DNA of 32,000 bases, taken from contig CAWDRY010000038.1 of the NCBI GenBank assembly GCA_963804745.1, forward strand, positions 56,047 to 88,046. Direction: 5' to 3'. The position numbers were made by a program, and so were the translations under genes. Of the stretch, positions 5,562 to 32,000 are shown one piece after another. Position 1 is the stretch's first letter, and each line of letters begins with the position of its first letter. The DNA is from an uncultured Gemmataceae bacterium (lineage in GTDB: Bacteria; Planctomycetota; Planctomycetia; Gemmatales; Gemmataceae). The notes beneath the pieces are model-generated. The model saw only the letters and a list, made by a program, of their open reading frames with translations, did no database searches and was not told where the DNA came from.

Positions 5562-5984
5562 TTGAAGGAGGGAGGTTCGACGACGTTCCGGCGCTGCCGC
5601 AAGCAACGCGGCCTGGAGCCGGATAATTGTTACTGGATCGTGAGCGAGCCACAGGTTCGCGGCAAGCTCGAAATCGACCTGGCCATAGACCCACCTCCAG
5701 ACCTGGCGATCGAGGTCGACGTCACTCATGGTTCGCTCGCTCGTCTTGACATCTATGCCGCACTCGGCGTGTCAGAGGTGTGTCGCTTCGATGGACAGAC
5801 ACTCACATTCCATGTGCTGGAAAATGGGAGTTACAGCGTGAGTCCGGACAGCCGAACATTCCCGGGCTTGACAGCGGACGACCTGATCGGCTTTGTCATT
5901 CTGCGCATGCAGATGGATGAGAACGCGGTCGTCCGGCAGTTCCGTGCCTGGATCCAGGAGCGGATAGCAACTGGCTGGAAGTGA
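5562..5984 (+). pseudogene. Uma2 (DUF820) family endonuclease, N-terminally truncated
   Basis: GSTTFRR..GLEPDNCYWIVSEPQVRGKLEIDLAIDPPPDLAIEVDVTHGSL..YAALGVSEVCRFDG matches the C-terminal two thirds of Uma2 proteins as I remember them. The N-terminal ~100 aa are absent. Confidence 0.65.
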
Positions 5985-6078
5985 TTCTTCCGTCCGGAAC
6001 GCAGCGAGCCGCTGCTTTCGTGCTTGGCGATACTCGATCATGCAAGTAGAATGGCATCTCAAGAGAAAAAGGGGCATT

Positions 6079-6312
6079 ATGTCCAAACACACCAAAACCA
6101 TTCCCAAGAAGAGATCGAAGCGTGACGGCCGGCCTTCCAAGGCGAACTCCGTTTCGGAAGGTCCTCTGGACATCGAAGTCCTGGCGGCTCAGCAGGGGGT
6201 GAAGCCCATCGAAAAGCCAGAGGATCTGCGCGGCGACTTCTGGCCGGAAGATGAGAGCGTCGATGACTTCTTGAAGGCCAGAAAGCGCTGGCAGCGCGAG
6301 GGACGGAGGTAG
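6079..6312 (+). CDS. antitoxin partner of the downstream VapC (family not recognised)
   Basis: The ATG at 6079 follows AAAAAGGGG. The 77-aa basic/acidic protein ends 5 nt before the VapC start, a typical type II TA layout. Confidence 0.55.
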   Translation: MSKHTKTIPKKRSKRDGRPSKANSVSEGPLDIEVLAAQQGVKPIEKPEDLRGDFWPEDESVDDFLKARKRWQREGRR

Positions 6313-6317
6313 TCGCC

Positions 6318-6719
6318 GTGGCGGTCGTTGTCGATACCAACATCGTTTCGTTCCTGTTCAAGGGCGACACGCGCGGTGACCTATATCTGCCTCACTTGAT
6401 CGGCGAGGTGGGTGTGATTTCTTTCATGACTCTGGCCGAATTGCACCGTTGGGCCCTGGAACGCAACTGGGGACAGGCCAGGAAAGCACGGATGCAACGG
6501 TTCCTACGTCGCTACGTCCTTCACCCCTATGATCGCAGCCTGTGCTTGAGGTGGGCCGAAGTCAGTGACCAGGCGCGTCGCAAAGGGCGGCCCATCGGTG
6601 TCGCGGATGCCTGGGTCGCGGCCACGGCTCTGACGTTGGACATCGCGCTGGTGACGCACAATCCCGGTGATTACGCTGGCGTGACGGGTTTGACGATCAT
6701 CACAGAAGCTGGGCCTTAA
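6318..6719 (+). CDS. vapC: VapC-type PIN-domain toxin
   Basis: GTG start. AVVVDTNIVSF supplies the first PIN acidic residue, LAELHRW the second, and PIGVADAWVAATAL...LVTHN the C-terminal acidic residue. The size (133 aa) fits. Confidence 0.85.
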   Translation: MAVVVDTNIVSFLFKGDTRGDLYLPHLIGEVGVISFMTLAELHRWALERNWGQARKARMQRFLRRYVLHPYDRSLCLRWAEVSDQARRKGRPIGVADAWVAATALTLDIALVTHNPGDYAGVTGLTIITEAGP

Positions 6720-11946: not shown

Positions 11947-12085
11947 GTGCAGGACACGGTTTGCAACGGCGCGTGAAATACCCTGGAGGCTCTGTAGCCG
12001 AATTCGCCAGAATTCGGGGCCTGGGGAGAGAGCACAGCCCCCGAATTCTGGCGAATTCGGCTACGACGCAAACCATGTCCTGCAC
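11947..12085. repeat. 139-nt nested palindromic element in the DUF1571/feoA divergent intergenic region
   Basis: Outer arms are GTGCAGGACACGGTTTGC (11947-11964) and GCAAACCATGTCCTGCAC (12068-12085). Inner arms of 27/28 nt are GTAGCCGAATTCGCCAGAATTCGGGGC (11994-12020) and its complement (12037-12064). Each inner arm is itself a hairpin (CCGAATTC-nnnn-GAATTCGG). Confidence 0.8.
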
Positions 12086-12373: not shown

Positions 12374-12622
12374 ATGGCTTCTCTGGACAAGACGCCGGTT
12401 GGCCAACGAGTCCGCATCACGGCAATCCACGGCGACGACGCCATCTTTCAACGTCTCCTGGAAATGGGACTGCTGGAGGGCGAAGAAATCGAAGTTATCG
12501 GCTTCGCTCCTCTCGGTGATCCGATGGAAATTCGTTTGCGTGATTATCGGCTCAGCCTGCGGCGGAGTGAGGCGGCCAGGATTGACGTGACTCGCCTTGC
12601 AGATGATGGGGTGACAAGGTGA
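12374..12622 (+). CDS. feoA: ferrous iron transport protein A
   Basis: 82-aa ORF with the FeoA pattern (VGQRVRITAI..D....RLLEMGLLEGEEIEV......GDPMEIRLRDYRLSLRRSEAARI). It lies directly upstream of feoB. Confidence 0.9.
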   Translation: MASLDKTPVGQRVRITAIHGDDAIFQRLLEMGLLEGEEIEVIGFAPLGDPMEIRLRDYRLSLRRSEAARIDVTRLADDGVTR

Positions 12623-12686
12623 CAAGGTGAAAGGGTGACAAGGTGACAAGGTGACAGGGTGACAGGGTGACAAGGTGACAAGGTAA
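12609..12686. repeat. tandem octanucleotide array (GTGACARG) x ~9-10, covering the last feoA codons and its stop
   Basis: Direct reading gives GTGACAAG x2, GTGAAAGG, GTGACAAG x2, GTGACAGG x2, GTGACAAG x2, then a degenerate unit. The feoA TGA stop is part of a repeat unit. Confidence 0.95.
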
Positions 12687-12752
12687 AGAGGCGACGGCAT
12701 TCCAATTCTGCCGAGGTTTTGGCGATGAAGCAAGTGAAGAAAGAAGCAAGCT

Positions 12753-15011
12753 ATGGAGTCACCCTGTCACCCTGTCACCCTGTCACCTTGTCATCCTGTC
12801 ACCTTGTCACCCTGTCATCCTGTCACGGTGGCTCTCCTCGGCAACCCCAACACCGGCAAGACGACGCTCTTTAACGCCCTGGCCGGCATGCGGCAGCGGG
12901 TGGGCAACTATCCCGGCGTCACCGTCGAAACGAAAAAGGGGCGGATGACCCACCAGGGCCAGGTGTTTCACGTGGTTGATCTCCCCGGCACCTACAGCCT
13001 GGCGCCGCGCAGTCCGGACGAGATGGTCGCGGTCGATCTCATCCTCGGGGATCAAGCAGGCGAGGAACGACCCGACGTAATAGTCGCCATCGTCGATGCC
13101 TCCAACCTCGAACGCAATCTTTACCTGACCACGCAGGCGATGGAAGTGGGCGTGCCGGTCGTCATCGCGCTTAACATGATCGACGTGGCCGAGCGGCAGG
13201 GATTGCACATCGACACGGAACGATTGGCTCGCCAGCTTGGCATGCCCGTTGTCCCAATTCAGGCGAACAAGCGGAAGGGACTGGACCGGCTCAAACAGGC
13301 GGTTGCGGAAGCAGTGGTCAGTGGTCAGTGGTCAGTGGTCAGTGGTCAGTGGTCAGTGGTCAGTGAGAGGAGAAACCAGGGGACGTGGCGGGCACCGCCA
13401 TTTCCCGAGGCATTCGAGCGTGAGGCAACAGCGCTGCACGACGCTATTGGCGATAGCACGCCTCCGTTTCTTGTTCGCCGGCTACTTCTGGACGTTGGCG
13501 GCCATACTGAGCGATGTTTCGCCGAACGCAACGGAGCGAATCTCCCTGATCTAGTGAAAGCGGCACGAGAGCGGCTGGCGGCGGCGGGTTGTGCAGTGCC
13601 GGCCGTGGAAGCCAGGACGCGCTATGCCTGGATTCGGCAAGCGACGGCAGACTGCATTCTCCGTCCCGAACAACGGCCCGTCATCTGGACTGATCGGCTC
13701 GACCGCGTGCTGACGCACTGGCTCTGGGGCACGCTGATCTTTCTAGCGCTGATGGCCGTCGTGTTCACGTCGATCTTCTATCTGGCCGACCCGCCCATGA
13801 AGGTGATCGAAAACGGCAAAAACGCCCTCGGCAACAGGCTGAGTGACTGGCTGCCGCCCGGACCCCTCACCAGCCTGCTGATCAGGGGTGTGCTGGAGGG
13901 CGTCGGCAGCGTGCTCAAGTTCCTGCCGCAGATCCTCATCCTGTTCGGCTTCCTCGCCATCCTGGAGGACTGCGGCTACATGGCCCGGGCTGCGTATCTC
14001 ATGGACAAGATCATGAGCCAGTGCGGGCTGAACGGCAAGTCGTTCATTCCGATGCTCTCCTCGATGGCCTGCGCGGTGCCCGGCATCATGGCGACGCGCG
14101 TCATCGAGAACCGGCGCGATCGGCTGGCGACCATCCTCGTAGCTCCGCTGGTGAGTTGTTCAGCCCGGCTGCCGGTGTACACGCTGCTGATCGCCGCCTT
14201 TATTCCCACGGACACGGTCCTCGGCTACTGCCTGCCTGGGCTGGTCATGTTCTCCATGTACATGATCGGTCTCATCGTGGCGCCGCTCGTGGCTCTGTTG
14301 CTGAAGCGGACGCTGCTGCGCGGCGAGACGCCGGCCTTTGTCATGGAGATGCCGCTCTACAAATGGCCGTCGCCGCGGCTGGTGATCCGGCGCATGCTCG
14401 ACAGCGGCTGGGCTTTCGTTCGCCGGGCGGGCACGCTCATCCTGGCCAGCATGATTCTCGTCTATGCCCTGTTGTACTTCCCTTCCAACGGCTACGACCA
14501 GCAAATTGCCGATCTGCGAGATGATCTCAAGAAGACGACAGACAACGACGCTCGGAAGGACATCAAGGAGCAGATCAACAAGTGTGACGGCGACTGGAAA
14601 CGACAAAGCATCCTGGGCCGGACGGGGCGTGCCATCGAGCCGGCCGTGAAACCTTTGGGCTGGGATTGGCGCATCGGCATGGCGGCATTGGCAAGCTTCC
14701 CGGCTCGCGAGGTCGTGGTCGGCACGTTGGGGGTCATCTACAACGTTGGTGAGGCGGAACCTCAGAAACTGCACGACCCGCTGAAGAATGCGACCTGGGA
14801 TGACGATCCTGGCCGCAAGGTCTTCACGATACCGACGGCCCTATCGCTGATGGTGTTCTTTGCGTTATGCTGTCAATGCGCCTCGACGCTGGCGGTGATT
14901 AAACGCGAGACACGAAGCTGGCGCTGGCCGATTTTCACGTTTGTGTACATGACGGTATTGGCGTATGTCGGGGCGCTGGTGGTATATCAGATAGGGAGCT
15001 TGATAATCTGA
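12753..15011 (+). CDS. feoB: ferrous iron transporter FeoB
   Basis: Intact 752-aa ORF. G-domain motifs are GNPNTGKTTLFNALAG, DLPGTYS and NMID, followed by multi-pass membrane gate regions. The first 24 codons are repeat-encoded (SPCHPVTL x3). An in-frame GTG at 12828 is an alternative start just before ALLGNPNTGKT. Confidence 0.95.
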   Translation: MESPCHPVTLSPCHPVTLSPCHPVTVALLGNPNTGKTTLFNALAGMRQRVGNYPGVTVETKKGRMTHQGQVFHVVDLPGTYSLAPRSPDEMVAVDLILGDQAGEERPDVIVAIVDASNLERNLYLTTQAMEVGVPVVIALNMIDVAERQGLHIDTERLARQLGMPVVPIQANKRKGLDRLKQAVAEAVVSGQWSVVSGQWSVVSERRNQGTWRAPPFPEAFEREATALHDAIGDSTPPFLVRRLLLDVGGHTERCFAERNGANLPDLVKAARERLAAAGCAVPAVEARTRYAWIRQATADCILRPEQRPVIWTDRLDRVLTHWLWGTLIFLALMAVVFTSIFYLADPPMKVIENGKNALGNRLSDWLPPGPLTSLLIRGVLEGVGSVLKFLPQILILFGFLAILEDCGYMARAAYLMDKIMSQCGLNGKSFIPMLSSMACAVPGIMATRVIENRRDRLATILVAPLVSCSARLPVYTLLIAAFIPTDTVLGYCLPGLVMFSMYMIGLIVAPLVALLLKRTLLRGETPAFVMEMPLYKWPSPRLVIRRMLDSGWAFVRRAGTLILASMILVYALLYFPSNGYDQQIADLRDDLKKTTDNDARKDIKEQINKCDGDWKRQSILGRTGRAIEPAVKPLGWDWRIGMAALASFPAREVVVGTLGVIYNVGEAEPQKLHDPLKNATWDDDPGRKVFTIPTALSLMVFFALCCQCASTLAVIKRETRSWRWPIFTFVYMTVLAYVGALVVYQIGSLII
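12758..12826. repeat. tandem octanucleotide array (CYTGTCAC-type) x ~8.5, the reverse complement of the 12609-12686 array
   Basis: Units read GTCACCCT x3, GTCACCTT, GTCATCCT, GTCACCTT, GTCACCCT, GTCATCCT, GTCAC. The array starts 3 nt after the ATG at 12753. Confidence 0.95.
13314..13365. repeat. tandem heptanucleotide array (GTGGTCA) x 7 inside feoB
   Basis: Seven perfect GTGGTCA units span 13314-13362, plus a partial GTG. They are translated as VVSGQWSVVSGQWSVVS, between the G domain and the following helical domain. Confidence 0.95.
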
Positions 15012-16777: not shown

Positions 16778-17669
16778 CAGGATGCTCCAGAATGATCAAT
16801 TGCCTTTCGCCATAGAGCGATGGCTTGTCTGGCGGGTCATAACGCACTTTCAGCCAAATTCGGGTGATGTCGGGACTATAACTGCTCCACGGTAGGCATA
16901 ACGTGTAGCCCTTACCAATCGCATCCTTCCGTCGCACTCTTTGGAGAGTTTCGCCGTCGATACGCCAGACTTCCTGAAGGTCGGGAGGCTCGTTAGCCTT
17001 GGTTGTCTCCCTATGAAGTTCCACGACCACCTCACCATTCCCGTACTGCGGCACTTCGGCCTTTTCACCGATTAGATACAGTCTGCCGGTCAAACATGCA
17101 ATTCGTTCGCCATCATGTGAGAGATCGGCGTGGAAAACGATGTTCTTTTCCCAGTTGGCGACGATGCTGGCCCCTTTCCTGAGAGGCATGCCGCTCTTGG
17201 CCACTACCCGACAGCCTGAGAATGCAATAAAGAATGGACCATCTTGTTCGCCCTTCCTCCCTTCACATAGGCCGCAGATCGTGACGACCTGGGGAGGCTC
17301 CAAATCCACCAATTGCTTGCGATCCTCGGCGTCGAACCGAAATGCGATGCAAGTCTCGGGAGCGCGGCTACCTTCTATCGTCGGCACATAAACCGGCGGA
17401 GTATGATCCGGATATCCCAGAACGCTCTTGACCAGCCCGGTGACCTCTACTTGCTTGTTCGTGAAGTTCTCGTCGGCAAAGGCATCGTTGGTGCGGTAAG
17501 CCCGGAACAACTCTGCGGCAGTCGTTTTCCTCACGGTTGAAGTATTGCCATCGAACTCTGCTCCTTTATGGTTATCGCCCTTGCGGAGCGGCAAGTCTGC
17601 TTTCCTCTGTGGCTCGTCGGCGGCGATTAACAAACAAGCAAAAACACCAATCAGGATGTGTATTCTCAT
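16764..17669 (-). CDS. secreted hypothetical protein with tRNA_anti-like OB-fold segment
   Basis: Signal peptide MRIHILIGVFACLLIAA. TAAELFRAYRTNDAFADENFTNKQVEVTGLV resembles the OB-fold 'tRNA_anti-like' domain pattern. The remainder is unrecognised. Confidence 0.5.
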   Translation of the reverse strand: MRIHILIGVFACLLIAADEPQRKADLPLRKGDNHKGAEFDGNTSTVRKTTAAELFRAYRTNDAFADENFTNKQVEVTGLVKSVLGYPDHTPPVYVPTIEGSRAPETCIAFRFDAEDRKQLVDLEPPQVVTICGLCEGRKGEQDGPFFIAFSGCRVVAKSGMPLRKGASIVANWEKNIVFHADLSHDGERIACLTGRLYLIGEKAEVPQYGNGEVVVELHRETTKANEPPDLQEVWRIDGETLQRVRRKDAIGKGYTLCLPWSSYSPDITRIWLKVRYDPPDKPSLYGERQLIILEHPDASK

Positions 17670-17849: not shown

Positions 17850-19177
17850 TCATTTCTTCGGCAGACCTTGACGCCAGGGATGGTCAGGGCCAGGGCGATA
17901 CGAGCCCGAGGGGCCAGGGAGCGGTGCGGCGGCCGGAGCGCAGGGCGAGCGCAGCGAGCCCGGAGCGGAGGCCGCCGCACCGCTCCCTGGCCGAGGCTCG
18001 TCTCGCGGTTCTGCATTCGCCACGATCTCGTGGTAAGCTAGGTAACGTTCCCCAAAGCGAATCGCCATCGTCCTGTCACGACGCTCCTCAATAATCACCC
18101 GGCCATACCCGCAAGCCCGGCAGCGCCGGCTTGTGCAGTTGATACCAGCGGTTGTGCAAACGAATCGTGTAGTCGTTGGTCACCACGCGTTTCGTCTGCA
18201 CGCTCAGAATGGCCGGCAAGAAATACTGCCGTCCCAAGGCGCGGTGGGCATCCAAGCCATCAGCCGCTGGTACTGCAAAACGCCGGTTGTATTCCGGAAC
18301 CAGCGTGTGGCGAACGAACTCGTTCGCTGCTGCTCGGGTCGTCACCTTGGCCAAACGCATCTCCTTCACCCAGCGATCCTGGGCTACTTCAAAAAAGCCT
18401 CGATCCGTCCCTTGGCCTGCGGGCTGTGGGCCAGGATCAATTCGATGTCCAGCTCCCCATGGCCCGGCCAAACTGCGTCAGTCCTGCGGCGGCTTGTCCC
18501 TTACTTTGCCACTGAAAAACGCTGTCTCTGTCCGTGTAAAACGCCCACGGCCGGCCTTGGCGCCGCAGCCAGCGTTCCGTCATGTCCATGTACGCTTCGA
18601 CCGTTTCACCTTCGTAATACCCTGCGTCGATCCGACTCGTGGCATCGTCGATCAGCGCCACCAAAACCATCTCTTCACCACGCCCTTCCAGCCAGTCGTG
18701 CAGCAAGGTGTCCATCTGAATCAACTCGCCAAAACAACGCCGGCGCGGCCGCCGACTCCGATGCACGTCACGCCGCCGCTTGCGCCTCCATAGCCCCTCC
18801 GCCAGCAGCCATTGCCGTAAGGTCTCGACCGACACCTGCAGCCCCTGCGCCGCCAACTTTTCGCTCGCCAGCGTCGGCCCGAAGTCCGCGTAACACTTTT
18901 GATAGGTCTTCAGCACCTTGCCGCGAAGCTCCTCGTCCAGTCGCCGGTTGGACAGTCGGCCGCGCAGCCCATGCACCAAGGCCTGGTCGCCTTCCTCCTC
19001 CAAGCGTAGTGCCAAGCGGCGCACATGCCGCGCTGTCAGATCCAACAGCCGCGCCGCCTCGGCTTGGCTCGCCTTGCCATCCACGACTGTTTGCAAAACT
19101 TTCAAAACATCGCGCTCACGCTGACTCATAGTAATCCGGTCTTCGAACCCTTTCATGAGAACTGCCCTCCTTGACAC
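17850..19177 (-). pseudogene. ISNCY-type transposase (HTH + rve/DDE core) with two frame changes
   Basis: Three pieces in three frames: MSQRERDVLKVLQTVVDGKASQAEAARLLDLTARHVRRL.., ELIQMDTLLHDW..VALIDDATS..FYTDRDSVF (ORF 18437..19177); ..FFEVAQDRWVKEMRLAKV..TNDYTIRLHNRWYQL (ORF 18088..18471); ..IIEERRDRTMAIRFGERYLAYHEI (ORF 17850..18098). Confidence 0.8.
17914..17990. repeat. perfect 21-bp GC-rich inverted repeat (35-nt loop) inside the 3' end of the transposase ORF
   Basis: CCAGGGAGCGGTGCGGCGGCC (17914-17934) is the exact reverse complement of GGCCGCCGCACCGCTCCCTGG (17970-17990). Confidence 0.9.
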
Positions 19178-21101: not shown

Positions 21102-21320
21102 ATGCAATCGCAACCCTCATTGCGCCAAATGACTCGTGATCCGGATGAAACTTCTGATCTGGAAACGCTCATGGCCGAGGTCGTTCCGGACCACGACACA
21201 TGGAAACAGACTCCGAATCCTGTTCTGGGCGGAAAGAAGCCCATCGACCTGATAAACTCGCCACAGGAACAGGTCTTACGTGATCTGCTCCGCGCTGCCA
21301 AGCATGGGATGATGTCGTGA
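21102..21320 (+). CDS. Xre/MbcA/ParS-like antitoxin (DUF2384-type C-terminal toxin-binding domain)
   Basis: 72 aa. W..TPNPVLGGKKPIDLINSPQEQVLRDLLRAAKHG matches the DUF2384 pattern. It overlaps the RES toxin start by 4 nt and is preceded by an AAAGGAGA Shine-Dalgarno. Confidence 0.7.
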   Translation: MQSQPSLRQMTRDPDETSDLETLMAEVVPDHDTWKQTPNPVLGGKKPIDLINSPQEQVLRDLLRAAKHGMMS

Positions 21321-21928
21321 AACTGGCTAATTGCTATCGGCTGGCAAGACGACCGTTCACAGGGACGTGGTACCGAGCGATTAGACCTCAATTTCTGCAA
21401 ACCACACTTGCTTACGCACATACAAGGACGATTCCTGGCCGATTCAACGCTGGTTCAATCCCACGGCCCGGGTTCCCAATTCTTTACCTTGCCGAAGATC
21501 AGGTCGTGGCCCTCTTTGAAGTCTACGCTCTCTTGGGATCACCATTACCAGGACTACCTTTCCTGCCCAATCCGGCCTTACCCTGGGCAGTGATCAATGT
21601 GGACGTACAGTTAAGAAGCGTTGTCAATCTTTGTCGGGAGTCTCAACGCAAGATCGTCCAAACCACTGTTCAGGAGTTGACAGGTGACTGGCGAGGTTAT
21701 CTGCTCCGTAACCCAAGCCCGATGCTGAATCCACCCTATTGGACTCATGTTCCCACGCAGCGACTCGGTGCGGCGTTTCACGCCCTTCGTGGAGTGGAAG
21801 GCTTTCTCACTTACTCAGCAAAGGTTTCCACGCGCCGCAATCTGATCGTGTTCCCGGACAAACTCCGCTCCGGAAGTTTCGTTCGCTACACCGATCCAGC
21901 AACCGGCCAGATCCATTCGATTCCATAA
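21317..21928 (+). CDS. RES-domain toxin (NAD+-targeting family)
   Basis: GTG start. GRFN (Arg), YLAEDQVVALFEV (Glu) and LTYSA (Ser) occur in RES order. The 203-aa size and the pairing with an Xre/ParS antitoxin both fit. Confidence 0.8.
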   Translation: MKLANCYRLARRPFTGTWYRAIRPQFLQTTLAYAHTRTIPGRFNAGSIPRPGFPILYLAEDQVVALFEVYALLGSPLPGLPFLPNPALPWAVINVDVQLRSVVNLCRESQRKIVQTTVQELTGDWRGYLLRNPSPMLNPPYWTHVPTQRLGAAFHALRGVEGFLTYSAKVSTRRNLIVFPDKLRSGSFVRYTDPATGQIHSIP

Positions 21929-24339: not shown

Positions 24340-26732
24340 ATGATTGCCTTATCCTGTTCGAGTTGTGGTCAGCGGTTATCCATCAAGGTGGAAATGGCAG
24401 GTCGGAAGGGCAAGTGTCCCAAGTGCGGCAAGCCGATCCAGGTTCCCTCTTTGGATCGGTCCGCAGGCGCAGATTGGCCGCCGTCACCGGACGCTCTGGC
24501 AGTCCCGCCGCCGCCGGCCATCCATGTAACCGGGGCGAGCGACTCGGACACGAACGGACCGGAACCCGGCGCCGAGGTAACTCCCGAAGACTATGCCTTT
24601 CTGACCCCAGCCAAGGGACCGGGCGAACTCGGCTGGCTGGGATCGTACCGCGTTCTGAAAGTGCTCGGCGCCGGCGGCATGGGGATCGTTTTCCAGGCGG
24701 AAGATCCGAAGTTGAAGCGTCTGGTGGCCCTCAAGGCCATGCGGCCGGGGCTGACTCTCAGTCCGGCGGCCAAGCAGCGATTCCTGCGCGAGGCCCAGGC
24801 CGCTGCCGCCATCGAACACGATCATATCGTCGGCATCTTTCAGGTGGCGGAAGATCGCGGCGTCCCCTTTCTGGCGATGCCGTTCCTCAAGGGCGAATCA
24901 TTGGATGCCCGGCTGAACCGTGACAGCTCGTTGCCGATGCCGGATGTGCTGCGCATCGGTCGGGAGATTGCCGAGGGATTGGACGCCGCCCACCAGCACG
25001 GCCTCATTCATCGCGACATCAAGCCGGCCAACATCTGGCTCGAAACCAGAGGGCGAGCCGAGCGGCGTCAGCCGCCGGGTGAGTCAGAACCCGGGGGCCG
25101 GGTAAAAATCCTTGATTTCGGCATGGTCAGGACTGCCGACAGCAAGACCCACCTTACCCAAACAGGCGCCATCCTCGGCACACCGGCGTACATGGCTCCC
25201 GAACAAGCGCGCGGCCTGCCGGTTGATGCTCGCTGTGACCTGTTCAGTCTCGGCTGCATGTTGTACCGCATGACGACGGCCACGCTGCCGTTCACGGGCA
25301 CCGATCCGCTTTCGGTACTCATGTCGGTAACGACCGATGATCCTGAACCGCCACGCAAACTGAATCCGGCGGTGCCGGCGGCGCTGTCCGATCTGATCAT
25401 GAAGCTGCTGGCCAAAGACCCAAAGGACCGGCCGGCCTCGGCGCGAGCAGTGGTAGAGGCGATTGAGGCCATCGAGCGCAGACTGGCCAGCGCGGCCGTC
25501 CCGGTGGCCAAGAGCTTGGGTACGTCAGCGGGCTCAAAGACCAGGTTTCTACGCCGTGCCTCTTCGGTACTCGCCCTCGGCGCCGCGACTCCTATGGCTG
25601 CTGCTGGTCGTGCCGGCATTATGGCTTCTGCGCATCGGCATGGGCTATCTACGCCGGCGTCCTCGTTTGCGAATGGGCGTCGTCATCGGCATGTTCTTCC
25701 TGGCACTTGGGTTAGCGGCTTTGGTGGTCATTCGCATCAATACGGACAAGGGTACGGTCGTCATTGAGAGCGACGATCCTGATGTCGAAGTGGTCGTCAA
25801 ACAGGGCGGCAAGCAGATAGAGATCATCGATCTCAAGACGAAGAACAAAATCGAGCTGAAGGGTGGCGAGTACGAGTTCCAGTTGGCAAAGGAAGGAACC
25901 GGTCTGCGTTTGTCCACGGATCGGCTGACACTTATGCGCGGGGACAAGAAGATGGTCAAGATCCGCCGCGCGGAGGGGCTTCCCAAGGAAATCACCAACT
26001 CCATCGGCATGAAACTGGTGCTGATCCCCGCCGGCAAGTTCGTGATGGGCTCGCCCGCTTCCGAGGCGAATCGCCAACCCGACGAGGAACAGCACCAGGT
26101 TGAGATCACGAAGCCATTTTACATGGGCGTGTACACTGTCACGCAGGCAGAATATGAAAAGGTCATGGGCAAGAACCCCAGTTACTTTTCCGCCACTGGT
26201 GGTGGCAAGGATCGCGTGCAGGGCAAGGATACCAGTATGTTCCCGGTGGAACAGGTCTCGTGGTCAGAAGCGGTCGAATTCTGCAGTAAGCTGTCCGAGT
26301 TGCCAGAGGAAAAAGACAAAGGGCGGCAAATACCGCTTGCCCACGGAGGCCGAGTGGGAGTATAGTTGTCGCGCTGGTACGACAACTCGCTTCTACAGCG
26401 GGGACAGTGACGAAAGCCTGGCCGGTGTGGCCAATTTCGCGGGGAGCAAAGTGGGGATGCCAACCCCGGTAGGTCAGTTCAACCCTAATGCTTTCGGACT
26501 GTACGACATGCACGGGAACGTATGGCAATGGTGTGCAGACTGGTTTGAGGTGGATTACTACAAGAAGAGTCCTGGGCAAGATCCGCAAGGGCCGGGCGCC
26601 GGCGCGTTCCGCGTTTTTCGTGGCGGCTCGTTCCACAGCGGTGCCCGCGACTGTCGCTCGGCGTACCGCAACAGTCGCGGGCCTTTGGCCCGCAACGACT
26701 TCTTCGGTTTTCGTGTCGTGTGTGTGCAGTAG
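24340..26732 (+). pseudogene. Ser/Thr protein kinase fused to TM segment and FGE/SUMF1 (formylglycine-generating enzyme-like) domain; two frameshifts
   Basis: An N-terminal zinc ribbon (CSSCGQ..CPKCG) is followed by kinase motifs GAGGMGIVF, VALK, HRDIKPANIW, DFG and TPAYMAPE. Then a frame change near 25550, a TM segment, and IRINTDKGTVVIESDDPDVEVVVKQGG. The SUMF1 motifs are NSIGMKLVLIPAGKFVMGSP, a frame change near 26322, RLPTEAEWEYSCRAG, GLYDMHGNVWQWCADW and RVFRGGSF. Confidence 0.85.
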
Positions 26733-27081
26733 TTTCTGGCCGGGTCTTGTCCTCTGTATTCTCTGTTCTCTGACCTCTGTTACGAAGGACGGCCGTGAGC
26801 GGCGGCAACGGGCAGTAGAATGGCAAGCATCGGGATGGCCGGAGTAGCTACTGGCCGGCTTGCCCGGCATCCTGCGGTTGCATCTCTCCATTTGTCCCGC
26901 AAGCCTTGCCATCAGCAATCGTTGTTGCTAATCTTACATCTCCATAACAGGCCAAACCGTAGGTGAATTGGTTCCTGCCACCAGCGCCACCAGCGCGGGG
27001 TTGAGCCAACCATAGCTCAGGGAAACTCCGCTTTCAAATGAGGCAAAACACTTGCGAGCCGCATGGACATTGCCATCCACG

Positions 27082-27648
27082 CTACCGCACGGACACCACC
27101 AGCTTTTTTGCTTTTTCCAATGGATGTTCTCCGGTGTAGTTCTCGCCCATGAAGACCTCCTTGATTGTGGCATTACGAAGATTTGGGTCTAGCATCTTCT
27201 CATACGCGACCAACACTCGGAATGCATCTCCCTCCTCTCCAGTTATGGCTTCCGCGCCACCAACAATGTGACAGTTGCGGGAGTCAGGGCTAAAAGGAAT
27301 GACGGCATTGTCCTCATCGAAAAAAATGTGCTTGAGTCTTATGGTCGGTTGGGTATTGAGGAGAGTGCTTTGCAATTTCTGCAAATCATACCGGTTTGCA
27401 GCGGAATCGTTCGTCACGGTTGTTTCAAACTCCAGCAAATACTCGAGTTCAATACCACACACCAGACAGCCCTTTTGATGTTCGTAAGGGCGTTCGGTGA
27501 GTTTCAAGGACAACTTTTTCATTTTCAGACCCGGAATCCGGCTGATCCCCCGAATCCCAGTATCATCGTCCACCGTTCCTTTGTCGTTCCCAGCCGTGTC
27601 GGTCGCGGGAACATCGTTCACCTGATCGTTGCTAGCGGTATCGGTCAT
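27082..27648 (-). CDS. hypothetical protein (D/T-rich N-terminus), last gene of a minus-strand cluster
   Basis: Intact 188-aa ORF with no family recognised. Its start lies 38 nt downstream of the T5orf172-like gene. Confidence 0.4.
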   Translation of the reverse strand: MTDTASNDQVNDVPATDTAGNDKGTVDDDTGIRGISRIPGLKMKKLSLKLTERPYEHQKGCLVCGIELEYLLEFETTVTNDSAANRYDLQKLQSTLLNTQPTIRLKHIFFDEDNAVIPFSPDSRNCHIVGGAEAITGEEGDAFRVLVAYEKMLDPNLRNATIKEVFMGENYTGEHPLEKAKKLVVSVR

Positions 27649-27685
27649 GGTCTTTCTCCGAATTTGGCGTGCGTGTTCCTTGTGT

Positions 27686-27928
27686 TCAGAAATGATAAGT
27701 CAGCACTTCTTCGATGATCGCACCCTTGAACCATTCGCCTTCCAGTCTGTGCTGGGCAAACTTGCCGTGGAATGAGAGTTCGTCATCGGGTGTTCCCGGT
27801 ATGATCCCAATAAGAATCAGCTTGTGCGGATTGCCCGTTTGCAAATCAGACAAACGTTGCTCAGGTTTCTTTGAGGAGTAACCGATTTTGATGGCTTGAC
27901 TTACCGTGTCTTTGATGAAGTAAATCAT
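27686..27928 (-). CDS. stand-alone T5orf172 / GIY-YIG-like domain protein
   Basis: MIYFIKD....IKIGYS..PEQRLSDLQTGNPHKL.L.......ELSFHGKFAQHRLEGEWF matches the T5orf172 (MUG113-like) pattern. Confidence 0.6.
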   Translation of the reverse strand: MIYFIKDTVSQAIKIGYSSKKPEQRLSDLQTGNPHKLILIGIIPGTPDDELSFHGKFAQHRLEGEWFKGAIIEEVLTYHF

Positions 27929-27975
27929 GGCAATTCTCTCCGAGGATACCTCTCTGGTAGGACACTATCCACGTA

Positions 27976-28191
27976 TCATATTACGTTCTCAGTTTCTTCG
28001 GCCTTTTTCAAAACTCGCTTCGCCTCCGCCAGCGCCGCACGGATAGCGAACTGCGTCATCGGTCGGCGATCGATTTTGGCGGCGGCTTGAACAAGTTCGT
28101 ACTCCTCTTCCGTATACCAGAGTTGCGACGGCTTGTAGCCGAGTTTCGCCATGCGTTTCCCGCCAGATTCTGTGCCTTGCTTTTTGAGCAT
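27976..28191 (-). CDS. ribbon-helix-helix (CopG/MobC-like) protein
   Basis: YTEEEYELVQAAAKIDRRPMTQFAIRAALAEAKR fits a strand-helix-helix pattern. The start is uncertain (ATG at 28191 or 28152; the ORF-track start at 28245 overlaps the upstream gene). Confidence 0.45.
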   Translation of the reverse strand: MLKKQGTESGGKRMAKLGYKPSQLWYTEEEYELVQAAAKIDRRPMTQFAIRAALAEAKRVLKKAEETENVI

Positions 28192-28222
28192 TGGTCCCTC
28201 CCTTGCCGTGTCGATCCCGCCA

Positions 28223-29277
28223 TCACGATTGTTCCTCAGGATCATTCTGCTCGGAAGCAGGTTCCGGCCATTCAGGCCAGAGCCTTTGGCAAAGGTCGCC
28301 TATTTCAAATTCCTCAACTTCGCCGGAGCTCGGCTCAAGAATGATGTTTACCTGGATGTCAAATGTAACCCTACCCGAGAAATGACCGTCAACGCTACGG
28401 TCTTTGTATTGGCAATTCACGATGCCATCGGCCCGGTAAACGATGAAAATGGAAAGACGATCATCCTCCATTTGCCAGGCATTGATGTAGAATTGCTCCG
28501 GCACATCCGCGAGGTGCGCGAGCTGCGGTGAATCGAAAGAGGGAGTATTGAAATGAGAGGGAAAACTCCCCCAGCCGATGATGTCCTCACTCACGGCTTC
28601 GAAAATCTCGCTGTGGTTGTCCGCAAACAATTGACGAAGGTTGAAGGCTGGGTGTTTGTCGTTGTAAATCATGGGCCACAGTTTTTCAAAGGTCTCCAAT
28701 CGTTGTTTTACGTGTCCTTTCACAAAAGAGAATAAAGTTCGGTAGAACTGGACTCGATTGCTGGGTATCATGCGTTTTTCCAGGTCAGCAGCCAAATCAG
28801 GCGCAGCTCGCCAGGCTTGCCGAAATCGCGCACACTTTCCGTGATTATGGTGATCGTATCTTGGCTGTGGGTCAGAAATTCATCCGCCATTTGCCAGATT
28901 ATTGTGCCCTTAACCGACCTGGATTCGCGTGCTGTTAGAACAATGTCGTTATGGCCTGCCTGCTCGATGCCCAGAACCGTTAACCTGGTGGAAAGCGTTG
29001 TCCTGTAACGATTCTCTTCCTCGTCCAAACAAACAGGTGGAAACCTCCACTCAGCATCCCTTGGCAATAATCTGCTCATTGCTTTTAGCCCCTTGTCGAT
29101 CATTGCCGCTGCATCTTTGATGCCTTTCCGGAAGTTTGTTGCTGCCTCATCCATCACTATTTCAGGCACAACGATTTTCGTATCTTCGCAACTCTTCCAG
29201 TCGCGAAGCCAATTGCATTTCCTTCCCTGAAAGTAAGGATTCTTGACAAATTCCATCGAATCAATGATTACAATCAC
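28223..29277 (-). pseudogene. PIN-like (DUF4935-type) protein, apparently split by one frameshift near 28801
   Basis: The GTG start at 29277 follows GAGGAGG. N-terminal IVIIDSMEF...KIVVPEIVMDEAATNF resembles PIN-like DUF4935 proteins. ORF 28768..29277 ends ..FGKPGELR and the sequence continues as PDLAADLEKRM.. in ORF 28223..28795. The combined 1055 nt is not a multiple of 3. The family call is tentative. Confidence 0.4.
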
Positions 29278-29332
29278 AATTGTCTACCTCCTCTCGTCAG
29301 CTACACTCCATTCCGTTTCTCATAACATTGTC

Positions 29333-29356
29333 ATTCTATACCTGTTCTATAGAATA
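29333..29356. promoter_or_regulatory. AT-rich repeated half-sites / palindrome in the divergent intergenic region (candidate operator)
   Basis: ATTCTATA-cctg-TTCTATAGAAT; TTCTATAGAA (29345-29354) is a perfect palindrome. It lies ~60-80 nt upstream of the PIN-like gene start. Confidence 0.3.
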
Positions 29357-29411
29357 GTCAAGGAGGGAAAATCACTTTTTGCCGCCCAGAAGACGTGGAA
29401 GGCAAAATGGC

Positions 29412-29653
29412 AGCTGGGGTCAGCAACCTTAACAGACATCCTTACTCTTAATATGTTCCTCACCCTGCCGCCGGTGTAAAAGTCCAGGAATGTACCGTGC
29501 CGGCAGCAAGCTATTCCGGGGAACGCGGGTTTGCAGGATAATGGCAGGGCGCCGTCTGGGCTACCTCGTGGCGCCACCTTTGGTAATTTTCCACCAGTGT
29601 TTATTGCCGTGAATCGCTGTTTGCGCCTGCACAGCCACGCTTGTCACCCTTGC
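29412..29653 (+). repeat. copy 1 (full length) of a conserved non-coding 'C element'
   Basis: It aligns by eye along its whole length with 30337-30577 at roughly nine identical positions in ten. It contains the palindrome GTGGCGCCAC at 29568-29577. Confidence 0.9.
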
Positions 29654-29705
29654 GTTATAATACAATTGTGTTAGCATACTATCCGGCGGCGGCCAGGAGC
29701 AGTGT

Positions 29706-29987
29706 ATGGACTTGCGGGATGCGTTGATCGATTGGGACGATTCGGATGATGAGGACAGCAACACGGCCCACATTGCGGAACATGACCTGACGCCGGAAGA
29801 GGTCGAATCGGCTCTCTTCGACGAAAACACAAGGTTTGACGTGAGCGACTCGTCCGGCCGTCCCATTGCATTCGGCAACACCGATACGGGCCGGTTTATC
29901 GCCATCGTGTTCGACGTGCTGAACCCGGCCGATCCGCTCGTTATCCGCCCGATCACCGCCTACGACGTTCCCGAACCGAAGGAGTGA
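29706..29987 (+). CDS. BrnT-like (DUF497-type) toxin
   Basis: 93 aa. WDD....N..HIAEHDLTPEEVESAL, GRPIAFGNTDTGRFIAIVF and VIRPITAYDV follow the BrnT pattern. An AGGAG Shine-Dalgarno precedes the start. Confidence 0.55.
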   Translation: MDLRDALIDWDDSDDEDSNTAHIAEHDLTPEEVESALFDENTRFDVSDSSGRPIAFGNTDTGRFIAIVFDVLNPADPLVIRPITAYDVPEPKE

Positions 29988-29991
29988 AGCC

Positions 29992-30327
29992 ATGAAGCCA
30001 ACGATGAAGTCAAAACGTACCGCCGAGCAGCGGACCGAGGAAGAAGCCGTCCGCCGCCAGCACGCGGCAAATCCAATCCTACAACGGCCGGCCGGGACCA
30101 TTGATCGCCAGAGTTTTGCAGCTATCTTAAGTCTTGTGGCGCGATTCAAAGCTGTCCGGGAAAGCCAGGGGTTGACGCTGACCGAGGTGGCCGAGCGGAT
30201 GGGGATCGACTCGCCGGCTCTTTCCCGATTGGAAACGGGCAAGATGCTGAACCCTACGCTGGCGACGCTACACAAATGGGCGGAAGCTCTCGGCCAGAAA
30301 CTGGAGGTTGACTTGTCGTCCGCATGA
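29992..30327 (+). CDS. XRE-family HTH antitoxin
   Basis: QGLTLTEVAERMGIDSPALSRLETGKMLNPTLATLHKWAEALG is a classic Cro/C1-type HTH. The start is 4 nt after the toxin stop, with an AAGGAG Shine-Dalgarno. Confidence 0.75.
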   Translation: MKPTMKSKRTAEQRTEEEAVRRQHAANPILQRPAGTIDRQSFAAILSLVARFKAVRESQGLTLTEVAERMGIDSPALSRLETGKMLNPTLATLHKWAEALGQKLEVDLSSA

Positions 30328-30336
30328 CCGGTCGTA

Positions 30337-30577
30337 GCGGGGGTCAGAAACCTTAACGGACATCCTCACTCTTAATATGTTCCTCACCCTGGCTCCGGCG
30401 TGAAAGTCCAGGAATGCACCGTGCCGGCAGCAAGCTATTCCGGGGAACGCGGGTTTGCAGGATAATGGCAGGGTGCCGTCCGGGCAACCTCGTGGCGCCA
30501 CCTTTGGTAATTTCCCACCAGTGTTTATTGCCGTAAATCACTGTTTACGCCTGCACAGCCACAGTTGTCAGGCTTGC
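30337..30577 (+). repeat. copy 2 (full length) of the C element
   Basis: It starts ~10 nt after the XRE stop codon. The palindrome GTGGCGCCAC lies at 30492-30501. Confidence 0.9.
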
Positions 30578-30644
30578 TGAGTGATGAGAACGTGCTATTC
30601 TGAACGAGAAGAGAGAGACCTGATTATTTTACAGGAGGCTTTCG

Positions 30645-31322
30645 ATGAGCGTGCAGCAGAAAAGTCTGCCCGGTTTCGTGGTTACTATTCGGCCGGTTGC
30701 TGAAGAACCGAACGCATATTCCGTCAGCTATGTGCCGCGCGGACTCCAGCAAGCACGCACTCAGGGTGGCGGGGTGAAACGTGTACACGACAAATTCCTT
30801 CCTTACAAGGCGCTGGTCACGATTCAAGGGGACGAGATTGCCGTCAATTGGCAGAAAAAGCCTTCCTTTCCGGAAGTGACGCCAGAGGAATTTGACGAAG
30901 ATATGCGGGAGCGCATCCGCCTCATGCTCGGATGGCTGAGCCTCATCTCGCAGTTGATCGACTCCGTGCGCGAATGGGCCGCAGGGCTTGACTGGTCCAC
31001 GAAAGTCGTCGCGAAACCGATGGAGGATTCGGAGATCGGCAATTACACGGCTCCTGCGTTGCTTCTACAGCGAGAGGTCACCAAGATCCTCCTTGAGCCG
31101 ATCGCAAGGCACGGACCTGGCATGGAGGGCCTGGTGGATTTGTATCTCATGCCCGGGTATGACGACATCGCCAGCCTTTATTATTACAACGACCGCTGGA
31201 ATCTTCATTACCAGCTTCCTCCGGCCGGTGTCGCTGCGAATATTCGGGAAGGGAAGGTGAAGCCGCTTACCAAAGCGAGTTTTCTCAAAGTCCTCGAGGA
31301 GATGAGGCAGCATGCCCAGTGA
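30645..31322 (+). CDS. hypothetical 225-aa protein (no family recognised)
   Basis: Intact ORF with an AGGAGG Shine-Dalgarno 7 nt upstream. It is followed 30 nt later by a HEPN-like gene. Confidence 0.5.
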   Translation: MSVQQKSLPGFVVTIRPVAEEPNAYSVSYVPRGLQQARTQGGGVKRVHDKFLPYKALVTIQGDEIAVNWQKKPSFPEVTPEEFDEDMRERIRLMLGWLSLISQLIDSVREWAAGLDWSTKVVAKPMEDSEIGNYTAPALLLQREVTKILLEPIARHGPGMEGLVDLYLMPGYDDIASLYYYNDRWNLHYQLPPAGVAANIREGKVKPLTKASFLKVLEEMRQHAQ

Positions 31323-31352
31323 AGCTTCGGCTGGAACACCCGGATCAAGGCC

Positions 31353-31769
31353 GTGGAGCGGGAATATACCACGGTTCGGCTGGCCATGAATCGGCTCGAC
31401 CAGCATGCCAAGGACAATCCAGCCATTCTCACCGGCGACTTGCGAATCCGAGATATTACGACCGCCTCCAACCGGTTGGAAGGCACCTATATCATTCGCC
31501 TGTTTGCCGAGTTTGAGACTGGCCTGCGGCAATTCATGAAGGCATTCAAGTACCGCCTTCCAAAATCCACGGAGGCATTGTTGAACCGCGTGAAGGACAG
31601 GGTGGCATTTCCAAGGAGTTCGGACAATGCTCACGCTGTTCGCGATTACAGAAACACGTTAGTCCACGACCGCCAGGAGCATGCTGATCGGGTATCTGTG
31701 CGGGAGGCAACCCGATATCTCGGCTGCTTCATGGGCTGGCTACACGCTACTGGTGATTTATCTGGATGA
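31353..31769 (+). CDS. HEPN-like protein (Rx4H motif)
   Basis: 138 aa with a GTG start. The C-terminal AVRDYRNTLVHDR contains an R-x4-H motif within a predicted helical protein, as in HEPN RNase families. The assignment is tentative. Confidence 0.4.
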   Translation: MEREYTTVRLAMNRLDQHAKDNPAILTGDLRIRDITTASNRLEGTYIIRLFAEFETGLRQFMKAFKYRLPKSTEALLNRVKDRVAFPRSSDNAHAVRDYRNTLVHDRQEHADRVSVREATRYLGCFMGWLHATGDLSG

Positions 31770-31776
31770 ACGTGGA

Positions 31777-31937
31777 GCGGAGCTTAGAAATCTTAACGGA
31801 CATCCTTAGTATTAATATGGTCCGCTCCCTGGCTCCGGTGTGAAAGTCCAGGAATGCACCGTGCTGGCGTTGAGATATTCCGGGGAACGCGGGTTTGCAG
31901 GATAATGGCAGGGCGCCGTCTGGGTAACCTCGTGGCG
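31777..31937 (+). repeat. copy 3 (left ~160 nt only) of the C element
   Basis: It starts ~8 nt after the HEPN stop. It aligns with copies 1 and 2 up to ..CCTCGTGGCG, then diverges completely (GGCGGGAACCGGGG..). Confidence 0.85.
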
Positions 31938-32000
31938 GGCGGGAACCGGGGCCATTCTCCCTTTTTCTCCCCCCCAATCCACCACAAAACCTGCCAAAAC

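Follow-up and report, generated by a model that had tools for sequence, protein, structure and literature searches.

Towards the right end of a 32,000-nucleotide (nt) stretch of contig CAWDRY010000038.1 from an uncultured Gemmataceae bacterium (the window; all positions refer to this whole stretch), three same-strand copies of a non-coding element alternate with small two-gene modules (Table 1). Genes for FeoB, glucose-6-phosphate dehydrogenase, a class-V aminotransferase and a Ser/Thr kinase adjoining an FGE-sulfatase mark the stretch as chromosomal. A repeat search recovered the element as two families, D2 with three 162-nt copies (29412-29573, 30336-30497 and 31776-31937) and D3 with two 242-nt copies (29412-29653 and 30336-30577; 92% identity), and nhmmer scored the copies at E-values of 1e-58 to 1e-87, far beyond chance. 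Pairwise identities range from 85 to 92%, with 20 mismatches in 242 nt between copies 1 and 2, 20 in 162 nt between copies 2 and 3, and 24 in 162 nt between copies 1 and 3. An earlier inspection of the letters and their open reading frames (ORFs) alone, here called the sequence-only reading, had described three direct copies, the first two about 90% identical over about 240 nt and the third shorter and less similar. This description holds (copy 3 shares 162 nt at 85-88% identity), except that copy 2 extends to 30586 and that copies 2 and 3 start at 30336 and 31776. The spacing of 8-10 nt that it gave between the preceding stop codon and the element is right for copy 2, which starts 8 nt past the XRE stop codon (30325-30327), and slightly too long for copy 3, 6 nt past the stop codon of the HEPN-like gene (31767-31769); over all arrays described below the distance ranges from an overlap to 37 nt. 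The gene content was also correctly recognised. Cassette 1 carries a BrnT-like toxin, whose BrnT_toxin match is sub-threshold (28.9 bits against a cut-off of 34.5), with a clear HTH_3/XRE partner in Pfam. Cassette 2 carries a 225-amino-acid (aa) protein that matched no family in Pfam or PADLOC, with a partner that is HEPN-like by weak HEPN-clan matches only (DUF4145, HEPN_Apea, HepT-like) and by an RNTLVH (Rx4H) motif. Together, the three repeats form the right end of an array of small toxin-antitoxin/defence cassettes on a Gemmataceae chromosome, with content that varies between strains.

Exact DNA words from the element gave no match in genome, metagenome or viral contig collections, and relatives were sought through proteins. 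One such word, the 20-mer CGCGGGTTTGCAGGATAATG from a supposedly invariant block of the sequence-only reading, was absent from genome, metagenome and viral contigs; a 21-mer from the most conserved block matched no viral contig and hit three metagenome contigs, all in metallophosphoesterase coding sequence (VFIAGNHD), which we regard as chance. L001, an ENA contig, was reached through a 96% identical homologue of the 225-aa cargo protein; L049, a 747-kb ENA contig, through the exact BrnT sequence of the window; and L052, 98% identical to L049 and from a different sample, through a BrnT variant. A profile of the longest spurious reading frame of the element led to L053 and L054, on which ORFs had been called across other copies; among 5.8 billion proteins, this frame matched only three ORFs, and the two that were retrieved both lie on other copies of the element. 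The element is known from one narrow lineage, represented by two ENA samples and by contigs of metagenome-assembled genomes (MAGs) at NCBI; the comparisons cover contigs and not whole genomes. L001, L049 and L053 come from one sample, and their arrays may represent orthologous loci in populations living side by side or, with lower likelihood, paralogues.

An nhmmer profile counted 25 copies in five arrays (window, 3; L001, 2; L049, 8; L053, 8; L054, 4), every one of them in the same orientation with respect to the flanks and inside an array. The arrays occupy one locus. On the left they share the Ser/Thr kinase and the FGE-sulfatase, at 81-89% identity where the contig reaches that far, and on the right a flank starting GGCGGGAACCGGGGCC, followed in L049 and L054 by a CarboxypepD_reg-like gene on the minus strand, reached at its 3' end. 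Their content differs from array to array, with about 16 different small cargo modules, mostly toxin-antitoxin-like, between the copies: BrnT-XRE; the 225-aa protein with its HEPN-like partner; an 83-aa protein with PhdYeFM; a Tse2-like ADP-ribosyltransferase with a 94-aa protein; HicA-like with DUF4365; DUF7689; DUF6932 with a 65-aa protein; DUF4058 with DUF4926; a 91-aa protein with PIN_3; DUF433 with DUF5615; a TacA-like antitoxin; a C39 peptidase; and several small modules of unknown proteins. Cassettes measure 0.6-1.8 kb, and roughly three quarters of the cargo is oriented as the element, the rest being reversed. The closest matches of the RuvA of L001 (up to 81% identity) are in MAGs mostly labelled Gemmataceae or Gemmatales, and in a RuvA-anchored set of 45 other Gemmataceae loci the element was found in none; RuvB adjoins the array in L001 only. 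A short, non-coding, multicopy repeat of this kind might be a miniature transposable element, or the end of an insertion sequence (IS) or prophage, that spread across an island of toxin-antitoxin genes. The single orientation of all 25 copies, their confinement to the array, the lack of terminal inverted repeats, the lack of any match in plasmid and phage collections and the absence of a transposase or integrase nearby make this highly improbable. These genomes do hold a true miniature-transposon-like family of about 146 nt, present in both orientations (L001 370-515 and 14223-14362; L049 966-1111, 16550-16676 and 18308-18438; L053 11692-11835), with terminal inverted repeats TTAGGCATGGTTCAA ... 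TTGAACCATGCC and a long internal hairpin; it is unrelated to the element and absent from the window.

The cassettes have moved between lineages more recently than their flanks diverged, since the window shares its BrnT-XRE cargo with L049 at 99.3% identity (5 mismatches in about 690 nt) and its 225-aa/HEPN cargo with L001 at 97.7%, whereas the flanking kinase gene reaches only 87% and 89% in the same two comparisons. L001 lacks the BrnT-XRE cassette, and the DNA to the left of its first copy differs from that of the window. Both modules also exist without the element: BrnT-XRE between housekeeping genes in L050 and L051 (78% nt identity), and the 225-aa/HEPN pair in L002 and L003 (80% identity). 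In L050 (BrnT-XRE at 5715-6333), the DNA aligns with the window from CCACGCTT onwards, a point ~20 nt within the 3' end of copy 1. The fixed locus, the 2-8 copies per array, the varying cargo and the high similarity of cassettes relative to flanks strongly support the suggestion, already made from the sequence, of a cassette array resembling a chromosomal integron or tandem att-site accretion, and that the feature is a mobile cassette array we regard as very probable.

What travels is the cargo together with the element downstream of it, as in integron cassettes. We compared copies over element positions 1-235, always pairing copies from different arrays, for which the background identity over all pairs is 86.2% (standard deviation 5.3). 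Copies located behind the same cargo exceed this background, with identities of 99.4, 97.9, 96.6 and 92.3%, whereas informative copies that precede the same cargo share 83-94% and terminal copies with the same flank behind different upstream cargo share 78-84%. Copy 2 of the window and the L049 copy after BrnT-XRE (97.9%) show no mismatch at positions 164-251, rare variants included, and the cassettes that follow them differ; the copies that precede BrnT-XRE in the same two arrays are only 86% identical, although the cargo between is 99.3% identical. Likewise, copy 3 matches the terminal copy of L001, behind the same cargo, at 99.4%, as opposed to 78-84% for terminal copies behind other cargo.

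The same comparisons locate the exchange points. The copies before BrnT-XRE (window and L049) differ up to position 231 and those before the 225-aa cassette (window and L001) up to position 247. Exchange lies at 232-242 for the junction of the previous cassette with BrnT-XRE, at or beyond position 247 for the junction with the 225-aa cassette, and at or beyond position 248 for that between BrnT-XRE and the next cassette. Of the four informative junctions, three thus map within ~20 nt of the 3' end of the 251-nt element, an unlikely outcome for evenly spread crossovers. Crossover at the GTGGCGCCAC palindrome (position 162) and in the inverted repeat at 183-213 were both considered and rejected, as shared cassettes keep their downstream copy up to position 251 and differ in the upstream copy up to 231. 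The fourth junction, that of the DUF6932 cassette (L049 and L054), is a mosaic, its tracts being bounded once within the element and once within the gene, so that homologous recombination acts here too; internal deletions at short homologies in copies 2 and 7 of L049 fit this, as do the terminal copies, which are hybrids whose left part follows the upstream cargo and whose positions ~120-162 are the same in all.

Homologous recombination might even be the whole explanation, and this is the main rival. The element would then be portable homology, its copies kept alike by gene conversion, and cassettes would be swapped, deleted or duplicated by RecA-type recombination after DNA uptake, with no dedicated site or recombinase; any function of the element would be local, such as insulating transcription between cassettes. 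The mosaic tracts, the deletions and the hybrid terminal copies are what it leads one to expect, and the lack of a recombinase nearby, of a hairpin and of arm-site repeats agrees with it. It predicts, however, that a copy is linked equally to the cargo on either side, but the copies go with the upstream cargo; it predicts exchange anywhere along the element, but three of the four junctions lie at the 3' end; and it explains neither the sharp, constant 5' edge of the element nor how unrelated modules came to lie between elements in the first place, BrnT-XRE for example being element-free in other bacteria. We consider it rather unlikely that homologous recombination alone built these arrays.

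The element itself is non-coding DNA of roughly 235-250 base pairs (bp) on the 3' side of each cassette cargo. Its 5' edge is sharp, every copy with an intact 5' end starting (GC)|AGCGGGGGTCAG; at this edge, before the first L049 copy, GGCGGGGGTCAGG is tandemly duplicated (L049 6488-6524), and a CAGCGGG-like motif occurs three times at L049 7478-7500, where positions 1-100 of copy 2 are missing. The 3' edge varies between positions 235 and 251. Homology stops at 235 (GTCAC|) in four L053 copies, in one of them after an internal 16-nt deletion, at 242 (CCCTTGC|) before BrnT-XRE, and at about 251 (after TGACTGATG|) in all others. In about half of the cassettes another 30-80 bp are conserved past the element: these copies run on into a common 28-nt D segment, and several then into a promoter-leader with TGTATAAT. 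The three stop points bracket a short inverted repeat, GTCA-N7-TGAC, and a loose YTTG follows GTCAC even in divergent cases, which makes this region, by its sequence, a candidate core. One copy (L049 6740-6762, equivalent to 30563-30586) forms a 9-pair hairpin that passes a scan for terminators, and we rejected a terminator at this position, as the pairing is not conserved. Conservation is graded along the element, from 76% at positions 1-45 to 96% (96.3% mean pairwise identity among 17 copies) at 183-213, a block that holds an imperfect inverted repeat, CAGTGTTTA-TTGCCG-TAAATCACTG, with a weak hairpin (-4.1 kcal/mol, z = -2.9). The internal pattern proposed from the window alone does not extend to the family: the 37-nt 'invariant block' varies at GGGGAACGCGGG, the most conserved block being 183-213, which copy 3 lacks, and the 'hypervariable patch' is just two main haplotypes among 17-25 copies. 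The terminal copies of the window, L001, L049 and L054 end at position 162, at or within 1 nt of the palindrome centre GTGGC|GCCAC, against the same right flank.

Table 1. Features of the array region in the window. Copies are numbered from left to right; positions in parentheses are those within the element.
Feature	Position	Strand	Basis and remarks
Variable region left of copy 1; five genes: 188-aa protein, GIY-YIG/T5orf172-like, TacA-like antitoxin, 190-aa protein, PIN_12	26733..29411	-	ORFs, Pfam
Element copy 1 (positions 1-242), leftmost copy of the array	29412..29653	+	Repeat search, nhmmer
Cassette 1 cargo: own promoter and leader GTTATAAT, BrnT-like toxin 29706-29987, XRE/HTH_3 antitoxin 29992-30327	29654..30327	+	Pfam
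Element copy 2 (positions 1-251), goes with the BrnT-XRE cassette upstream	30336..30586	+	Comparison with L049
10-bp palindrome GTGGCGCCAC	30492..30501	.	Copy 1 equivalent 29568-29577
Imperfect inverted repeat of the conserved block, CCAGTGTTTA-TTGCCG-TAAATCACTG	30518..30543	.	Copy 1 equivalent 29594-29619; absent from copy 3
Element 3' end CAGTTGTCAGGCTTGCTGAGTGATG; family consensus CACTTGTCAC-CCTTGC-TGACTGATG	30563..30586	.	Short inverted repeat; element homology stops here; putative exchange zone
Cassette 2 cargo: leader AGAACGTGCTATTCTGAACGAG..., 225-aa protein 30645-31322, HEPN-like protein 31353-31769	30587..31769	+	ORFs, Pfam
Element copy 3, terminal, truncated (positions 1-162 only)	31776..31937	+	Repeat search
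Conserved right flank GGCGGGAACCGGGGCCATTCTCCC...	31938..32000	.	In L049 and L054 runs into the 3' end of a minus-strand CarboxypepD_reg-like gene

The non-coding nature of the element, proposed from the scattered changes in its spurious frames, is borne out by the lack of 3-nt periodicity in the differences between window copies, by a proportion of synonymous changes of 20-29% in each of the six frames, none being favoured (8 full copies), and by the lack of any Pfam match in any frame at E <= 10. On the same grounds of no favoured frame and no Pfam match, we rejected a pseudogene fragment, an idea arising from the metallophosphoesterase coincidence. The alternative offered by the sequence-only reading, a family of structured leader or 3'-untranslated-region RNAs attached to the toxin modules, fared poorly. 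A functional RNA of this or a related kind, such as a small RNA or an antitoxin RNA, transcribed either from a weak promoter-like sequence within positions 18-46 or along with the upstream operon as its tail, seems very unlikely. Copy 1 does have a promoter-like match, TTAACA-17-TATGTT, at 29429-29457, the element begins just past stop codons, and about half of the copies run into the common promoter-leader. Rfam, however, gave no match in the window at the gathering score and none at E <= 10 in the arrays or the L001 right flank, and the fold z-scores of the element are -0.43 and -0.03 on the two strands. In RNAalifold, 17 copies yielded no support for covariation (a penalising covariation term of +0.95, with compensatory double changes in 2 of 62 pairs), a test of limited power with copies that are ~86-92% identical. 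Moreover, the element follows reversed cargo as well as forward cargo, in no array that extends to the right flank is the last copy followed by a gene on its own strand, and conservation along the element is lowest in the promoter-like region.

The array is organised like a sedentary chromosomal integron or a CALIN, a cluster of attC sites without a nearby integrase (Cury et al. 2016, PMC4889954). As in these, small cassettes of cargo plus downstream site lie in tandem at a fixed chromosomal locus with content varying between strains, the sites share one orientation and are highly similar within the lineage, the cargo is mostly co-oriented, and many cassettes are toxin-antitoxin modules; as in CALINs, there is no integrase nearby. 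The site is a different one, however, being 235-250 bp or longer and conserved in primary sequence. Known attC sites measure 57-141 nt. A regular-expression scan of both strands for pairs of R'' (RYYYAAC) and R' (GTTRRRY) boxes spaced 45-150 nt apart found none in the window (29301-32000) or in L049 (6401-13800), and DNA folds of element segments gave z-scores from +1.2 to -2.7 with no consistent hairpin, in agreement with the caution of the sequence-only reading that this is not attC. Neither intI nor attI was found beside the arrays in the window or the related contigs. A comparison of the left sides of the arrays gave no conserved, attI-like junction: their sole shared stretch is a 45-nt segment, GTGAGCGGCGGCAACGGGCAGTAGAATGGCAAGCATCGGGATGGC, identical at window 26795-26839 and L049 5101-5145 within otherwise unrelated regions and absent from L001 and L053. 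The leftmost site here is complete and the rightmost truncated, again unlike integrons. Planctomycetes carry canonical integrons (PMC4889954, PMC8352920), so the element is not simply attC as it looks in this phylum. With attC and intI/attI searched for and not found, we do not file the array as an integron or CALIN.

Other known systems share single traits with it. The attP sites of phages and the cer/psi-type sites of plasmids consist of a core with about 150-200 bp of one-sided accessory sequence, and the element resembles them in being long, unstructured and double-stranded, with exchange near one end; it differs in having no dif-like 11-6-11 consensus recognisable by eye and no arm-type repeats above chance. 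Its two short inverted repeats, CAGTGTTTA-6-TAAATCACTG and GTCA-7-TGAC, look by eye unlike known dif sequences, though those of Planctomycetota may differ. Cis-mobilizable elements (CIMEs), integrative mobile elements exploiting Xer (IMEXs) and satellite islands likewise are units without a recombinase of their own, piled head-to-tail at one chromosomal site. Unlike in such tandem accretion, there is no tRNA or tmRNA target (ARAGORN found neither in the window), the units are far smaller than genomic islands, and the array does not end in the attL and attR forms of a simple attP x attB reaction. On Acinetobacter plasmids, small pdif modules, including BrnT/BrnA-type toxin-antitoxin pairs, are bounded by 28-bp XerC/D sites in alternating orientation. 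Those modules too are small, site-bounded and often toxin-antitoxin pairs, and are served by a recombinase encoded elsewhere, as we infer here; the sites of the present array are instead ~250 bp long, all direct and chromosomal. The orphan toxin/immunity arrays of rhs and cdi loci are also tandem toxin-related modules, each preceded by conserved homology that allows homologous swapping, but the repeat there is a coding fragment of the main toxin gene, whereas the element is non-coding and not part of a neighbouring gene. A full-text search of the literature found no description of such arrays.

We suggest that the array works like an integron but uses a site not described before. A cassette consists of a small self-contained cargo, usually a two-gene toxin-antitoxin/defence-like module with its own promoter, and the ~235-250 bp element on its 3' side. 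The element would be a long double-stranded recombination site in the manner of phage attP or plasmid cer/psi, with a short putative core, CTTGTCAC / YTTG / TGAC..., and ~230 bp of accessory sequence on its left side. A recombinase encoded elsewhere in the genome would probably cut near the 3' end of the element and excise a circle of cargo plus element, which could be re-inserted at the core of any resident copy. Homologous recombination between copies reshapes the array as well, giving rise to the mosaic tracts, internal deletions and hybrid terminal copies, and the truncated terminal copy would be a dead end, usable only by homologous recombination. The whole package, an integron-like cassette platform with a long double-stranded site and a recombinase encoded elsewhere, seems to us somewhat more probable than the alternatives taken together. 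We hold the existence of a dedicated site-specific step, considered by itself, to be quite possible, though short of probable, and only tentatively propose the most specific version, a site-specific gene-capture platform distinct from integrons, with an attP-like site of ~250-330 bp, an unlinked recombinase, a short core near the 3' end and strain-specific arrays at one Gemmataceae locus.

Several observations weigh against such a platform. The exchange points do not fall at one nucleotide, and the DUF6932 mosaic is what homologous recombination would give. No Phage_integrase or other recombinase match was found in Pfam among the tested window ORFs, which cover ~29 kb upstream, and no recombinase, transposase or reverse transcriptase within ~10 kb of the L001, L049, L053 and L054 arrays or in any cassette, which extends to the related arrays what the sequence-only reading had remarked for the window. 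The putative core spans few nucleotides and shows no covariation of its pairing in the alignment of copies; shuffled sequence is no poorer in arm-type motifs or internal short repeats. The array begins on the left with a complete copy and ends on the right with one cut at position 162, an arrangement that simple attP x attB accretion does not predict. The element, moreover, is known from one narrow lineage only.

Among bacterial systems that collect and reshuffle cassettes of single-gene scale, integrons are, to our knowledge, the only one that is well understood, and all known integrons need a folded attC and IntI. If the proposed platform is real, cassette platforms have evolved more than once, here with a long, unfolded, sequence-conserved site, and a new pair of recombinase and site would be a potential tool for genome engineering. 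Tools based on attC, such as IntegronFinder, would miss an array of this kind. If homologous recombination is all there is, the locus would still be a clear natural case of repeat-scaffolded cassette exchange in a phylum with poorly known mobile elements. In either case the arrays provide a list of mobile toxin-antitoxin/defence candidates, including the widespread 225-aa/HEPN-like pair with its predicted fold without a solved relative. The AlphaFold model of the 225-aa protein (predicted local distance difference test, pLDDT, 84; predicted template modelling score, pTM, 0.80) shows two beta-rich parts linked by a long helix and had no Foldseek match in the PDB at E <= 0.001.

The 225-aa protein has 366 homologues at E <= 1e-3, and its pairing with a HEPN-like partner is kept in L001, L002 and L003. 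The HEPN-like ORF of the window starts with GTG at 31353 (138 aa), that of L001 with an ATG overlapping the stop codon of the 225-aa gene (149 aa); one T is missing near 31330 in the window relative to L001, either a frameshift or a sequencing error. The XRE antitoxin (29992-30327) belongs to a cluster of 146 members at 90% aa identity, many of those listed coming from JGI metagenomes. To the left of copy 1, the variable region at 26733-29411 has no homology with the equivalent regions of L001 or L049, apart from the 45-nt segment mentioned above, and may be a first, reverse-oriented cargo without an element on its left side. Its G+C content falls to 0.49-0.52, against ~0.58-0.62 in most of the window, and G+C also falls across the array region.

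Elsewhere in the window, toxin-antitoxin/defence-type genes outside the array comprise a RES-domain protein (21317-21928) and a Uma2-family endonuclease-like ORF (5562-5984). The FGE-sulfatase-type gene (25463-26732) is split into two overlapping frames (25463-26365 and 26100-26732), and other genes, e.g., AcrB-like and SNF2-like ones, look truncated; these may be pseudogenes or assembly errors. Two strong hairpins with 11-nt loops lie at 11994-12064 and 17912-17992, one with 30-nt arms of 97% complementarity and the other with 35-nt arms of 86%. At the start of the FeoB ORF (12753-15011), tandem repeats of 8 nt face each other in two arrays (about 10 x GGTGACAA, followed by about 8 x GTCACCCT) and form a long inverted repeat (12585-12837) with arms of up to 77 nt and 83-90% complementarity, and a similar stretch occurs in L049 at 17444-17653.

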